Notes under the pieces: generated by a model
Told to the model about the DNA's origin: nothing
Database searches by the model: none
What the model saw: only the letters and a program-made list of their open reading frames with translations
Shown here: positions 9,580-61,287 of the stretch, one piece after another
Numbering within the stretch: position 1 is the stretch's first letter
Layout of the letters: every line of letters begins with the position of its first letter
Sequence record: NC_054932.1
DNA: 64,000 nucleotides
Direction: 5' to 3' (one strand)
From: Escherichia phage teqdroes
Position numbers and translations under genes: made by a program

Positions 9580-9610
9580 GTTTACTTTCCTTTCTAACGA
9601 TGATATGATA
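9580..9610 (+). promoter_or_regulatory. early promoter
   Basis: GTTTAC at 9580-9585, TATGAT -10. Confidence 0.5.
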
Positions 9611-9635
9611 GCTTCTGAAGTATACGGAGGCTATC

Positions 9636-10259
9636 ATGATTATTAATCCAGCAGATGTTGAACAGTTATCTATAAAAGCTGAAAGTGTTGATTTTCAATA
9701 TGATATGTATAAAAAGGTCTGTGAAAAATTTACTGACTTTGAGCAGTCAATTCTTTGGCAATGTATGGAAGCTAAAAAGAATGAAGCTCTTCATCGGCAG
9801 TTGAATAAAATCGTTAAAAAGCATTTAACTAAATCGCCTTATCAGTTATATCGTGGTATATCAAAATCAACAAAAGAACTCATTAAAGATTTACAAGTTG
9901 GAGAAGTGTTTTCAACGAACAGGGTAGATTCATTTACTACTAGTTTGCATACAGCATGCTCTTTTTCTTATGCTGAATATTTCACTGAAATAATATTTCG
10001 CTTAAAAACTGATAAAGCTTTTAATTATTCTGACCATATCAGCGATATTATACTTTCTTCTCCAAATACTGAGTTCAAGTATACATATGAAGATACTGAT
10101 GGATTAGATTCAGAACGTACTGATAACTTAATGATGATTGTACATGAACAAGAATGGATGATTCCAATTGGAAAGTATAGAATAACTTCTATTTCAAAAG
10201 AAAAATTACACGATTCGTTTGGAACATTTAAAGTTTATGATATTGAGGTAGTTGAATGA
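9636..10259 (+). CDS. modB: ModB ADP-ribosyltransferase
   Basis: 207 aa; R/S-x-S/E-x-E-type motifs (YRG, TTS, EQEWMIP); order modB-modA-srd-dda as in T4. Confidence 0.75.
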   Translation: MIINPADVEQLSIKAESVDFQYDMYKKVCEKFTDFEQSILWQCMEAKKNEALHRQLNKIVKKHLTKSPYQLYRGISKSTKELIKDLQVGEVFSTNRVDSFTTSLHTACSFSYAEYFTEIIFRLKTDKAFNYSDHISDIILSSPNTEFKYTYEDTDGLDSERTDNLMMIVHEQEWMIPIGKYRITSISKEKLHDSFGTFKVYDIEVVE

Positions 10260-14789: not shown

Positions 14790-14820
14790 GTTTACTTCCT
14801 CGGTTAGTTGTGGTATTATA
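14790..14820 (+). promoter_or_regulatory. early promoter
   Basis: GTTTAC at 14790-14795, TATTAT -10. Confidence 0.5.
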
Positions 14821-14846
14821 ACACCATAGCTACTGAGGATAATAAA

Positions 14847-15360: not shown

Positions 15361-15798
15361 ATGATTAAAAATAATGCTGTTTATCAATTGAAAAAATTTG
15401 ATGAAATTAAGAATTTTTCGGTACTGTCTAATACAGCTCATAATAAGTTTTGTGAACTTCTTGGTTTAACTGGCGGATATCCTTTTACTGTTATTAGTGT
15501 TAATAGCGGAATTCTTATCGGTATGATGTATATTGAAATTAGAAACTATTATGGAATGGTATCACCGCTTATTATTTATGAAAAAGATTTTAGTCTATTG
15601 ACAGAAATTGAAAAACCTGAAGATCCAACTGATCTACTGTGTAAGGCAGTTTATATTCGTCGTCCATTCGCGAATCCTGTGGGTGGATGGGTGACTGATC
15701 AGTGGATTGAAGATGGTGTTGAACTTCTGAACGTAGTTCATGCTGGAGAGTACTCTGTAGTTCCTCGCAGCGCAGTGATTAATGTTCGTGTAAGCTAG
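15361..15798 (+). CDS. hypothetical protein (145 aa)
   Basis: C-terminal TDQWIEDGVELLNVV motif shared with the next ORF. Confidence 0.5.
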   Translation: MIKNNAVYQLKKFDEIKNFSVLSNTAHNKFCELLGLTGGYPFTVISVNSGILIGMMYIEIRNYYGMVSPLIIYEKDFSLLTEIEKPEDPTDLLCKAVYIRRPFANPVGGWVTDQWIEDGVELLNVVHAGEYSVVPRSAVINVRVS

Positions 15799-15827
15799 TT
15801 TACAAACTCTTGGGACCAGAGTATAAT
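15798..15827 (+). promoter_or_regulatory. early promoter with -10 inside an inverted repeat
   Basis: GTTTAC at 15798-15803, TATAAT at 15822-15827, flanked by GGGACCA/TGGTCCC. Confidence 0.55.
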
Positions 15828-15871
15828 GGTCCCGTGGAGTATAAAATCTTTTTAACAAGTGAGAGATAACT

Positions 15872-20090: not shown

Positions 20091-20119
20091 TTTACTTTAC
20101 CACAAGGATGTGGTATAAT
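20090..20119 (+). promoter_or_regulatory. early promoter
   Basis: GTTTAC at 20090-20095, TATAAT at 20114-20119. Confidence 0.55.
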
Positions 20120-23514: not shown

Positions 23515-23709
23515 ATGTTAGGTTATCAAGCACGAGTAAAAGAAGAATACGATCAATTAATGCTCAAAATTAATGCACTGAGTAAATTTTTAGAAAGCGC
23601 AAAGTTTCTAACAGTTAGTGCAGTTGAGCAAGAACTGCTACTTTCACAGTTCATCTCAATGAAATCTTATGCTGAATGTCTAGAGAAAAGAATTGCACAA
23701 TTCAAGTAA
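23515..23709 (+). CDS. hypothetical protein (64 aa)
   Basis: ORF with AAGGAAA SD. Confidence 0.45.
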   Translation: MLGYQARVKEEYDQLMLKINALSKFLESAKFLTVSAVEQELLLSQFISMKSYAECLEKRIAQFK

Positions 23710-25092: not shown

Positions 25093-25123
25093 GTTTACAA
25101 GACTGTTCTTCCGTGGTACTATT
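25093..25123 (+). promoter_or_regulatory. early promoter
   Basis: GTTTAC at 25093-25098, TACTAT -10, leader …CAACTACGGAGGAAC. Confidence 0.5.
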
Positions 25124-25150
25124 ACCCTATCAACTACGGAGGAACAGAAA

Positions 25151-40400: not shown

Positions 40401-41274
40401 ATAATTTCTCATTATCATCATACATCAAGAAACCATCAATAGATGTACGGCCTTCAATGGAATGAGTTCCATCTTCTTGTACTGATGTCGTTTCATCGTA
40501 TGTAGTAACAATTGTATGATAAAGCGGATTTAGTTTATCTAAATCGACGAAATTAATAATATCGCCGTGATTAGCAAATCTCGGAAGTTTAATATTTATC
40601 GGTGCAGCAGAAGTAAATCTACGTACGATAAAATCATTAGATTGCGCTTGATAAGTATTCGCTGGTGTTACAACTACAGCTTCTCTACTATAATCAGCTA
40701 CATACATTTGCCACAGACGATTACTAAAAATTAAAACTAACTGCGACTTTGGATGAGTCATTAGTACTGAACGTACTTGTTCGCCTCTAAAGTTTACAAT
40801 ACTTTGCACTGGAGCTACAATTAAAACTTGGTTAACTCCAGGTTTTCCTCCAATATCTTGGAGAACGATAGTATCACCGTCAATTGGGGTAGATGGTAAA
40901 GTAAACGTGATGTCATTTCCAGTTGCAGTATTAACCGAAATAGCTTCACCGGATTTTAATTGATATGAACCAGATGAAACCGTAATCCAGTTTGCGTCTG
41001 TACGTAATGCTCTCCAGCGCCCGCTATTAAAAGCTCCTGCCGGTTTTGGAATATCATTTATAGCAGCCCAAAAGCGGTTATCATAAATGATTACAAAATC
41101 TTTTAAATATCCACGAGTTGGATCATATTGTTGAACTGTGTTTTCTTGAATTAAGTAATCAACGTTAACACCGTCAGTTCCTACGGTACGATCAGCTAAA
41201 GCTACGTTGATTATTTTATCGCCACCTGCGTCCAGACCGTCTTCTGCTCTGAACTTTCTTTTAATCTCGGCCAT
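37405..41274 (-). CDS. 34: gp34 long tail fibre proximal subunit
   Basis: 1289 aa, same length as T4 gp34; repetitive ATQ/TPKKL beta-rich segments. Confidence 0.9.
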   Translation of the reverse strand: MAEIKRKFRAEDGLDAGGDKIINVALADRTVGTDGVNVDYLIQENTVQQYDPTRGYLKDFVIIYDNRFWAAINDIPKPAGAFNSGRWRALRTDANWITVSSGSYQLKSGEAISVNTATGNDITFTLPSTPIDGDTIVLQDIGGKPGVNQVLIVAPVQSIVNFRGEQVRSVLMTHPKSQLVLIFSNRLWQMYVADYSREAVVVTPANTYQAQSNDFIVRRFTSAAPINIKLPRFANHGDIINFVDLDKLNPLYHTIVTTYDETTSVQEDGTHSIEGRTSIDGFLMYDDNEKLWRLFDGDSKARLRIITTNSNIRPNEEVMVFGANNGTTQTIELQLPTNISVGDTVKISMNYMRKGQTVKIKAAGEDKIASSVQLLQFPKRSEYPPEAEWVTVQELVFNGETNYVPVLQLAYIEDSDGKYWVVQQNVPTVERVDSLNDSTRARLGVIALATQAQANADLENSPQKELAITPETLANRTATETRRGIARIATTAQVNQDTTFSFADDIIITPKKLNERTATETRRGVAEIATQQETNAGTDDTTIITPKKLQARQGSESLSGIVTFVSTAGATPASSRELNGTNVYNKNTNNLVVSPKALDQYKATPTQQGAVILAVESEVIAGQSQEGWANAVVTPETLHKKTSTDGRIGLIEIATQSEVNTGTDYTRAVTPKTLNDRKATESLSGIAEIATQVEFDAGVDDTRISTPLKIKTRFNSTDRTSVVALSGLVESGTLWDHYTLNILEANETQRGTLRVATQVEAAAGTLDNVLITPKKLLGTKSTEAQEGVIKVATQSETVTGTSANTAVSPKNLKWIVQSEPTWAATTAIRGFVKTSSGSITFVGNDTVGSTQDLELYEKNSYAVSPYELNRVLANYLPLKAKAVDSNLLDGLDSSQFIRRDIAQTVNGSLTLTQQTNLSAPLVSSSTATFGGSVSANSTLTISNTGTATCLIFEKGPQTGTNPVQTMTIRVWGNQFGGGSDTTRSTVFEVGDETSNHFYSQRNKAGNITFSINGTVMPINVNASGSLNTNGVATFGSSVTANGEFISKSANAFRAINGDYGFFIRNDGGSTYFMLTASGDQTGGFNGLRPLSINNQSGQVTIGESLIIAKGATINSGGLTVNSRIRSQGTKTSDLYTRAPTSDTVGFWSIDINDSATYNQFPGYFKMVEKTNEVTGLPYLERGEEVKSPGTLTQFGNTLDSLYQDWITYPTTPDARTTRWTRTWQKTKNSWSSFVQVFDGGNPPQPSDIGALPSDNATMGNLTIRDFLRIGNVRIIPDPVNKTVKFEWVE

Positions 41275-44570: not shown

Positions 44571-44596
44571 GGGGACCCTAGAGGTCCCCTTTTTTA
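44571..44596 (+). terminator. rho-independent terminator
   Basis: GGGGACCC-TAGA-GGTCCCC followed by T6. Confidence 0.8.
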
Positions 44597-44621
44597 TTTC
44601 AAAAATTTTTTTCACAAAACA

Positions 44622-44651
44622 GTTTACATCCTTGTCCTTCCATGGTACTAT
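44622..44651 (+). promoter_or_regulatory. early promoter (repeated module)
   Basis: GTTTAC at 44622-44627, TACTAT -10. Confidence 0.55.
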
Positions 44652-45614: not shown

Positions 45615-45643
45615 GTTTACAACAGGCTATGGTAGTGATACTA
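45615..45643 (+). promoter_or_regulatory. early promoter with -10 inside an inverted repeat
   Basis: GTTTAC at 45615-45620; AGGCTAT/ATAGCCT flanks the -10. Confidence 0.5.
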
Positions 45644-45669
45644 TAGCCTTATCAACTAAGGAGAATAAA

Positions 45670-54000: not shown

Positions 54001-54030
54001 GTTTACAAGTCCCTCATGTTGTGTTATAGT
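54001..54030 (+). promoter_or_regulatory. early promoter with -10 inside an inverted repeat
   Basis: GTTTAC at 54001-54006, TATAGT -10, flanked by AGTCCCTCATGTT/AACATGAGGACT. Confidence 0.5.
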
Positions 54031-54061
54031 AATCTTACTGACATAACATGAGGACTTTATG

Positions 54062-57325: not shown

Positions 57326-57364
57326 GTTTACTTTACGGTAGAGTTGTGATATTATAGCTCTACC
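57326..57364 (+). promoter_or_regulatory. early promoter with -10 inside an inverted repeat
   Basis: GTTTAC at 57326-57331; GGTAGAG/CTCTACC flanks TTGTGATATTATAG. Confidence 0.5.
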
Positions 57365-57385
57365 AAAACAAATGAGGAAATTGAA

Positions 57386-57913
57386 ATGAGCAAATGGTTT
57401 GAAGAAGATAAGGTTTATCACTTTAAAGCTGGATATAAAGATATTTTTAATGAAACTTGCGGGGCTAATAAACGAATTTCTCAGTTTATTGGGGAAAATT
57501 CATTTAAAGTAAAAATAGATCCTGCGAAAAATGTTATTAGCATTAAACGCGAAATTGACGATTGCTGGTATAAAGCTGTTGATGTAATGGGCGAATCTTA
57601 TAAAGATAGCCCGCTATTTTCAATTACTTATATGTCAGAATATTATTTTTTCGAAGAAGTTCAAAAAGATGACTCTATCAGTAAATTTGAAATTAAAACT
57701 GATAAAGAAATTAAGTGGAAAGTAGTAGGTATTACTGGTTGTATGTTTTATATCTATGCTCAAACTGATACGAAGGAAGAAGCTAAAAAGAAAGCTCTAG
57801 AATATCTTGAAGAGCATGAAGAAGGCCCGGTAATGATTACCCAAGATGCCGAATTAGTTTCTGTCAAATTAGTTAAAAACGTTGAAAGTAAGGAGCTGGG
57901 ATCAACATGCTAA
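57386..57913 (+). CDS. hypothetical protein (175 aa)
   Basis: ORF with GAGGAAA SD. Confidence 0.5.
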   Translation: MSKWFEEDKVYHFKAGYKDIFNETCGANKRISQFIGENSFKVKIDPAKNVISIKREIDDCWYKAVDVMGESYKDSPLFSITYMSEYYFFEEVQKDDSISKFEIKTDKEIKWKVVGITGCMFYIYAQTDTKEEAKKKALEYLEEHEEGPVMITQDAELVSVKLVKNVESKELGSTC

Positions 57914-60739: not shown

Positions 60740-60743
60740 GTTA

Positions 60744-60772
60744 AGGACTCCTTCGGGAGTCCTTTTTATTTT
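60744..60772 (+). terminator. rho-independent terminator
   Basis: AGGACTCC-TTCG-GGAGTCCT followed by a T-run; same hairpin as at 7445. Confidence 0.8.
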
Positions 60773-60791
60773 CCAAAGATTGCACAAAGTT

Positions 60792-60825
60792 GTTTACAGT
60801 ATGGCTCCTTTGTGATAGTATTATC
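60792..60825 (+). promoter_or_regulatory. early promoter
   Basis: GTTTAC at 60792-60797, TAGTATTAT -10 region. Confidence 0.5.
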
Positions 60826-60848
60826 TTACACAAACAAAGGAGAATAAA

Positions 60849-61222: not shown

Positions 61223-61261
61223 TTTACTTTGGTACAGGATATGATATTATATACCTGTACC
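61223..61261 (+). promoter_or_regulatory. early promoter with -10 inside an inverted repeat
   Basis: GTTTAC at 61223-61228; GGTACAGG/CCTGTACC flanks ATATGATATTATATA. Confidence 0.5.
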
Positions 61262-61287
61262 GCAATTAAACATCTTGGAGAATAAAA

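Follow-up and report, generated by a model that had tools for sequence, protein, structure and literature searches.

The DNA analyzed here, hereafter the window, is a 64,000-nt stretch of Escherichia phage teqdroes (NC_054932.1). Most of it matches T4 at ~94-97% identity, and its identity to Escherichia phage 303Ecol101PP is 99.4%. The + strand, which carries the T4 early genes, is equivalent to the T4 minus strand from position 23,549 down to 1 and then from 168,903 down to 127,140. The site flagged for study, at 57326-57364, is the orthologue of the T4 early promoter Pe133295, located between cd.3 and cd.2 and identical in T4 here, and its -10 element sits in the loop of a short inverted repeat (class I, as defined below):

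57326-57355, + strand: early promoter with -35 GTTTAC at 57326-57331 and -10 TATTAT at 57350-57355; inferred start near 57362.
57337-57364, + strand: class I hairpin, with arms GGTAGAG and CTCTACC around a 14-nt loop that holds the -10.

T4 base 133295 is an A within the 3′ arm CTCTACC. Folded as RNA, the hairpin has 12 pairs, G-U pairs included, and a predicted energy of -16.3 kcal/mol (z -5.8); it ends 9 nt before the Shine-Dalgarno sequence (SD) GAGG at 57374-57377, which is followed by an ATG at 57386. Orthologues of this hairpin either carry the stem GGTAGGACT/AGTCCTACC or have no stem. Directly after the promoter lies a 175-aa ORF (57386-57913) with no Pfam match. T4 is without this 519-bp ORF: there, the same promoter and SD run straight into cd.2, and the junction with the window ORF falls within the leader/SD, as described for gene shuffling mediated by promoter-early stem-loops (PeSLs), elements defined in phages phi1/RB49 (Arbiol et al. 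2010, PMC2839356) that combine a strong early promoter with a stem-loop.

A GenBank note on the T4 counterpart of window 57344-57357 (T4 133300-133313) reads 'inverted complement of previously reported sequence; corrects the early promoter Pe133295'. The correction covers exactly the 14-nt loop, so the earlier T4 sequence had the -10 flipped between the arms; such a flip could be a promoter-killing inversion selected in cloning, or a sequencing error. An exact-pattern search for the inverted loop tells nothing, since inverting the loop of a hairpin simply yields the reverse complement of that hairpin. BLAST with flanking sequence found no inverted-loop variant in 669 phage records (best identity 92.7%).

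Matches to GTTTAC-N17-TAnnnT number 22 in the window on both strands, against 5.2 expected, and 20 of these early-promoter matches lie on the + strand at 16-18 nt spacing. These sites are T4-type early promoters, and they share with PeSLs the sigma-70-type early promoter with boxes ~17 nt apart. We took the 20 + strand sites (GTTTAC-N16-18-TANNNT) as the window set and assembled two larger ones: 165 promoters from the window, T4 and 42 related loci (45 sources), and 383 unique promoters from ~170 loci. Transcription starts were inferred from -10 spacing and one T4 promoter name and were set ~7 nt after the -10. An antisense GTTTAC-N18-TACAAT match at 40792-40821, within tail-fibre gene 34 and with no ORF downstream, may be chance; gene 34 is also the location of T4 oriG with its antisense primer RNA.

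These promoters are tightly packed. The median intergenic length is ~69 nt for the window promoters and 75 nt when all promoters are counted, the -35 follows the upstream stop codon by a median of 6.5 nt, and 25-45 nt separate the -10 from the ATG. At six inverted repeats listed by an earlier, sequence-only reading of the window, -1 to 4 nt lie between stop and -35 and intergenic lengths are 57-73 nt; all six are in the sequence as described, each with its 5′ arm within the -35/-10 spacer and the -10 hexamer in the loop. Besides the flagged site they are as follows, the last belonging to a second class:

2950-2975, + strand: class I hairpin of the dmd promoter, ACAAGACTA/TAGTCTTGT; -15.3 kcal/mol, z -5.6.
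15812-15833, + strand: class I hairpin of the motB promoter, GGGACCA/TGGTCCC.
45624-45649, + strand: class I hairpin of the frd.1 promoter, AGGCTAT(GGT)/(ACT)ATAGCCT; -15.6 kcal/mol, z -5.0.
61231-61261, + strand: class I hairpin of the gene 30.7 promoter, GGTACAGG/CCTGTACC.
54007-54056, + strand: class II hairpin of the alc promoter (54001), with 5′ arm AGTCCCTCATGTTGTG in the spacer and 3′ arm CATAACATGAGGACT.

The dmd repeat, cited as ACAAGACT/AGTCTTGT, can extend to 9 bp, and the -35 of its promoter, at 2938, overlaps the gene 41 stop codon; the alc repeat had been cited at 54008-54056 as AGTCCCTCATGTT/AACATGAGGACT with one bulge. Promoters 3441, 7478 and 10916, said to be without such repeats, indeed offer at best 6, 5 and 4 bp. 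The earlier list omitted two further hairpins, at 60805-60842 and 25103-25147, as well as the split into two classes, the hiding of the SD at 54008-54056 and the identity of the architecture with PeSLs. Its author had left the exclusion of chance to a scan of GTTTAC sites, here and in related genomes, against controls. That scan does exclude chance: a perfect repeat of at least 7 bp spans the -10 at 8/20 window promoters versus 1.7 expected when downstream halves are permuted among promoters, and a count of 8 was reached in 0/20,000 permutations.

Larger samples gave the same excess. Repeats of at least 9 bp occur at 34.5% of the 165 promoters versus 1.2% of within-phage chimeras, and a stem score of at least 8 is reached by 26.6% of the 383 unique promoters (~170 loci) versus 4.5% of chimeras. 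Within T4 23.5-100 kb, which is not syntenic with the window, repeats that reach 7 bp are present at 9/19 promoters, where 5.8% would be expected (P=4e-7); the ipI, ipII, ipIII, denV and regB promoters are among the sites. The ipII and ipIII promoters (T4 65799 and 66498; our locus L182, minus strand) have a common arm core, AATTGTGA/TCACAATT, which extends to 14 bp at 65799; the ipII/ipIII variable loci have been cited as PeSL-like (PMC2839356, PMC4122927). Eight window hairpins folded as RNA have energies of -13.8 to -24.8 kcal/mol, with z scores of -4.0 to -7.1 against shuffles. Strong stems are present in just 27% of the 383 promoters, enrichment is weak at middle promoters (nested stems at 12% vs 4%) and late promoters (12% vs 9%), and a search of the whole window against Rfam gave 0 matches at the gathering score.

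Orthologous promoters differ in arm sequence and retain complementarity. At alc, the orthologue arm pairs include TCTCCATTTGGTTG/CAACCAAATGGAGA, ATCCTCATCAG/CTGATGAGGAT and CCTCGTTTGTT/AACAAACGAGG, plus others, and 84% of orthologues reach a self stem score of at least 8, compared with 9.8% when arms are crossed by exchanging them between orthologues whose spacers differ. The gene 30.7 promoter behaves likewise (self stems 85%, crossed 8%), its orthologues having 11-13 bp stems with wholly different arms, or class II stems. Among 11 alc promoters that align in register, 91.6% of cells pair versus 31-58% when the partner is slid; compensatory changes occur in 4/14 pairs, and the covariation score was reached by 0/500 shuffles. 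The SD variants GGAG, GAGG and GGGG co-vary with the spacer anti-SD sequences TCTCC, TCCTC and TCCCC. RNAalifold predicted no pairs from a MAFFT alignment of 23 alc promoters, because the 3′ arms are out of register in that alignment. The pattern of sequence change indicates that the pairing is under selection.

Promoter and stem also seem to travel as units. The motB promoter with its stem (window 15798-15850) forms a ~55 nt cassette that stands before at least three unrelated genes in other phages, with copies at L009:1619, L019:2468, L026:2316 and L028:2716 in our collection of loci; those copies read GGGAGCA/TGCTCCC, from which the window differs by a compensatory G:C to C:G swap. The stem GGTAGGACT/AGTCCTACC is found at an alc promoter in one locus (L025:1500) and at a cd.2-type promoter in four others (L026:4821, L028:5157, L030:5157, L041:5014), and this promoter and stem apparently move together.

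The stems fall into two discrete classes. Measured from the -10, the 3′ arms of 102 strong stems have a bimodal start, at -5 to +5 nt (n=49) or at +8 to +20 nt (n=53), a few outliers aside. They end 15-31 nt or 2-8 nt before the ATG, and most 5′ arms begin 0-5 nt downstream of the -35. Class I hairpins are tight, and the -10 sits at their tip. Class II stems have the SD itself as their 3′ arm, as at alc and at the two hairpins added here:

60805-60842, + strand: class II hairpin of the gene 30.8 promoter (60792), CTCCTTTGT/ACAAAGGAG, with the 3′ arm being the SD.
25103-25147, + strand: class II hairpin in the ndd region (promoter 25093), CTGTTCTTCCGTGGT/ACTACGGAGGAACAG, with 15 pairs, two of them G-U.

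At alc (54007-54056; -24.8 kcal/mol, z -7.1), the 3′ arm includes the SD GAGGA, 2 nt before the ATG at 54059, and the predicted probability that this SD is unpaired rises from 0.00 in read-through RNA to 0.71 in the promoter's own transcript. The gene 30.8 SD shows the same values (0.00 vs 0.71), and at 25103-25147 (-22.7 kcal/mol), where the 3′ arm spans the SD GGAGG, they are 0.00 and 0.90. Averaged over promoters, SD accessibility in read-through RNA does not separate from that in promoter-swapped chimeras (0.35 vs 0.36); the mean being no lower than in chimeras, only the long-stem cases bear the class II argument. Imperfect pairings also bury the SD in predicted read-through RNA at 9600-9640 and 14797-14839 (unpaired 0.00), and at promoter 9580 it is the -10 region that forms the pairing with SD and AUG. 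Three SD regions (60838-60848, 61277-61287 and 45659-45669) read GGAGAATAAAA and fit the RegB strong-site consensus GGAGRAYARAA.

Class I hairpins end 9-27 nt before the SD. At 57337-57364, 2950-2975, 45624-45649 and 61231-61261, the SD has an unpaired probability of 0.48-0.85 and so is not hidden; the hairpin at 15812-15833 likewise leaves the SD uncovered, with the GAG assigned there paired in both transcripts (0.01 vs 0.02).

Nested stems depend strongly on what lies upstream, being typical of promoters set directly behind a co-directional gene that lacks a terminator. Of 144 promoters with the -35 right against the upstream stop, 50% have one; the share is 29% where 6-19 nt intervene and 7-8% among the 152 promoters with 20 nt or more (abutting versus ≥20 nt, odds ratio 11, p=4e-16). 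Regions with large gaps have instead an upstream hairpin in 59% of cases versus 11% of controls, mostly with a T-run, and these are true terminators. The window contains two canonical examples:

44571-44599, + strand: intrinsic terminator, GGGGACC...GGTCCCC with a T-run; the early promoter at 44622 follows closely.
60743-60774, + strand: intrinsic terminator, AAGGACTCC TTCG GGAGTCCTT with a T-run, shortly before the promoter at 60792.

The terminator at 44571 is an alternative arrangement, found where there is spacer behind the upstream gene. Stems resembling window 20099-20114 (CACCA...TGGTG) occur in other phages lacking a nested stem.

Taking these observations together, we think it probable that the repeats are PeSL-type stem-loops that fold as RNA hairpins solely in transcripts arriving from upstream. 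RNA polymerase recruited to the promoter would start ~7 nt after the -10, within or past the 3′ arm. Judged from this geometry, the promoter's own start lies 3′ of every 5′ arm, so its own mRNA cannot form the hairpin. Nesting would then be a packing solution forced by genome compaction: with the -35 abutting the stop and the ATG close to the -10, only the spacer and a short leader are free, so that a hairpin must straddle the fixed -10. The sequence-only reading had argued from differing arms at a constant position to a structural role, a view upheld by orthologues that change their arms yet keep the pairing, and it had left three mechanisms side by side. A structure in read-through RNA fits best, because the stems depend on upstream context and one class pairs with the SD, which is sensible only in RNA; a DNA cruciform is poorly supported, and promoter occlusion found no support.

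By analogy with the T4 genes e, soc, 49 and I-TevI, class II hairpins would restrict translation to transcripts from the gene's own early promoter, and would shield GGAG from RegB in read-through RNA. A review describes such protection of GGAG from RegB by RNA secondary structure, along with the GGAGRAYARAA consensus. Class I (57337-57364 and four others) does not cover the SD, and what it does, the least certain part of the proposal, can only be guessed from several options: most likely, the hairpin insulates the upstream cistron, whether by holding back 3′ exonucleases or RNase E or by weak attenuation.

The excess of G-U over A-C mismatches at unconstrained stem positions of class I (10 vs 3, one-sided p ~0.05) points to RNA but is only suggestive; in class II the counts are 5 and 8, partly reflecting chance extensions at stem ends. 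The sense strand folds more stably than the antisense strand in 35/41 class I stems, a comparison confounded by G-U in the promoter consensus.

The role proposed for the stems by the PeSL authors is that of terminators or attenuators, acting here on polymerase that arrives from upstream, and also of recombination sites (PMC2839356, in which translation is not mentioned). We regard termination or attenuation as the function of the nested stems as unlikely. The only published experiment concerned one phi1 stem-loop, which, placed before lacZ, cut expression about as much as rrnB T1 and was interpreted as transcription termination; a lacZ assay, however, would also respond to a change in translation or RNA stability. 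The complementary distribution of nested stems and true upstream terminators across intergenic regions, as if the two were alternatives, fits termination, yet the 60792 promoter has a terminator plus a nested stem. The stems themselves do not look the part: at least 5 T in the next 8 nt follow 0/102 strong stems, those 8 nt hold a mean of 1.65 T versus 2.5 expected in tails that are A-rich, and loops measure 8-24 nt. A terminator scan that flagged the terminators at 44571 and 60743 flagged no nested stem. The combination of GC-rich hairpin, short loop and U-run that marks an intrinsic terminator is thus not found in the nested stems.

That the repeats act as DNA, with a supercoil-extruded cruciform or hairpin hiding the -10 and shutting the promoter, or marking a recombination site, strikes us as decidedly improbable. 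The arms do flank an AT-rich, easily melted center, arms of 14 bp enclose loops of 8 nt at some T4 sites, and early-promoter shut-off is described as incompletely understood; crossovers in RB49 PeSL mini-circles mapped to the stem-loop, and what was inverted in the earlier T4 sequence is precisely the 14-nt loop of 57337-57364. Against this, inverted-loop variants are absent among the 669 phage records, and DNA hairpins at these sites reach only -5 to -8.4 kcal/mol per strand and leave a center of 8-15 bp unpaired; a cruciform calls for long arms and a very short spacer, whereas window class I arms are 7-9 bp with loops of 8-15 nt. Pairing with the SD, and covariation of the anti-SD with the SD variant, would be meaningless in DNA, and class I stems tolerate G-U more than A-C. 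An intrinsic property of promoter DNA should, moreover, ignore upstream context; stems that track the distance to the upstream stop and the absence of a terminator fit a structure in read-through RNA.

Two further accounts can be set aside more briefly. A lack of any function, the repeats being chance matches in AT-rich DNA or hitchhikers on copied promoter cassettes, is very improbable: 7-bp repeats do occur at 11% of random window positions, and the cassette that precedes unrelated genes with its stem included shows some recurrence by descent, but the observed frequency is 5 to 30 times that of chimera controls in three independent data sets, and orthologues have different yet complementary arms with compensatory changes. 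Operators for a dimeric DNA-binding regulator covering the -10 would suit the dyad symmetry centered there and are hardly credible, given arms that are unrelated between promoters and orthologues, arm spacings of 3 to 30 nt, and no shared half-site motif seen.

The architecture itself is already published as PeSL and is not new. What the read-through RNA interpretation adds is an argument that the stems are not classical terminators, and would instead be RNA structures marking a gene's own transcript against read-through. As a tentative but plausible extension, T-even early-promoter spacers might double as anti-SD strands, with alc, 30.8, denV and regB translated only from their own early transcripts. 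If so, a helix in read-through RNA would lock away the site that serves both ribosome binding and RegB cleavage; hairpin-gated translation would cover ~14% of the 383 promoters and about a quarter of those abutting an upstream gene; and each such gene would receive a short, promoter-timed pulse of expression, making PeSL stems post-transcriptional insulators, not terminators. Should class II work as proposed, neighboring early genes on overlapping transcripts could be expressed independently and briefly. For annotation, hairpins at phage promoters should not be called terminators by default. In the searchable literature, which omits most subscription journals, we found no description of early-promoter spacers as anti-SD strands.

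Several known systems resemble parts of this arrangement. In bacterial operons, intercistronic stem-loops stabilize upstream mRNA or block RNase E scanning. The hairpins described here are similar in being stable and without a U-run between cistrons, and they also lie just upstream of a RegB (GGAG) site; what sets these compact phage genomes apart is that the hairpin overlaps a promoter. Promoter elements inside inverted repeats are likewise known from an engineered promoter regulated by supercoil-induced cruciform extrusion and from phage N4, whose early promoters are DNA hairpins. Those systems need long arms and short loops or a dedicated virion RNA polymerase, whereas the promoters here are of sigma-70 type with short arms and long loops.

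PeSLs are closer. In phi1/RB49, the stem-loops are commonest between the -35 and -10 or overlapping the -10, and published stems include G-T pairs (PMC2839356, PMC4122927); Comeau et al. 2014 (PMC4122927) added PST/T4 and nt-1/KVP40 to the phages with PeSLs and noted PeSL-like elements at T4 internal-protein loci. The window shares with them an early promoter packed between the upstream stop and the SD/ATG, adjoining indels and standing before unrelated genes. Its stem-loops lie within or overlap the promoter, with the -10 in the loop and the 5′ arm in the spacer, and mobile cassettes with indels or gene replacement are represented by the ORF behind the 57326 promoter, the 15798 cassette and the GGTAGGACT stem. 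It differs in that the T4/PST figure legend (PMC4122927) puts the stems upstream of the promoter, and in that the T-even stems here are without U-runs and fall into two classes, one of which is the SD.

Class II has its nearest counterpart in T4 e, soc, 49 and I-TevI, where sequestration of the SD is relieved by an internal late promoter (PMC3014915, PMC2988022). The likeness lies in an SD/AUG paired in the long transcript, as predicted at 54007-54056, 60805-60842 and 25103-25147, and in an own transcript without the 5′ strand, which from the inferred starts applies to all 5′ arms. The promoters differ: those of e, soc, 49 and I-TevI are late, and one of the two reviews states that all such hairpin-gated genes are late, whereas the hairpins here, known from sequence alone, belong to early promoters of early genes such as alc, with the promoter's own spacer as the 5′ strand. 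By this analogy, hiding the SD in early genes would extend a mechanism that both reviews (PMC3014915, PMC2988022) list for late genes only.
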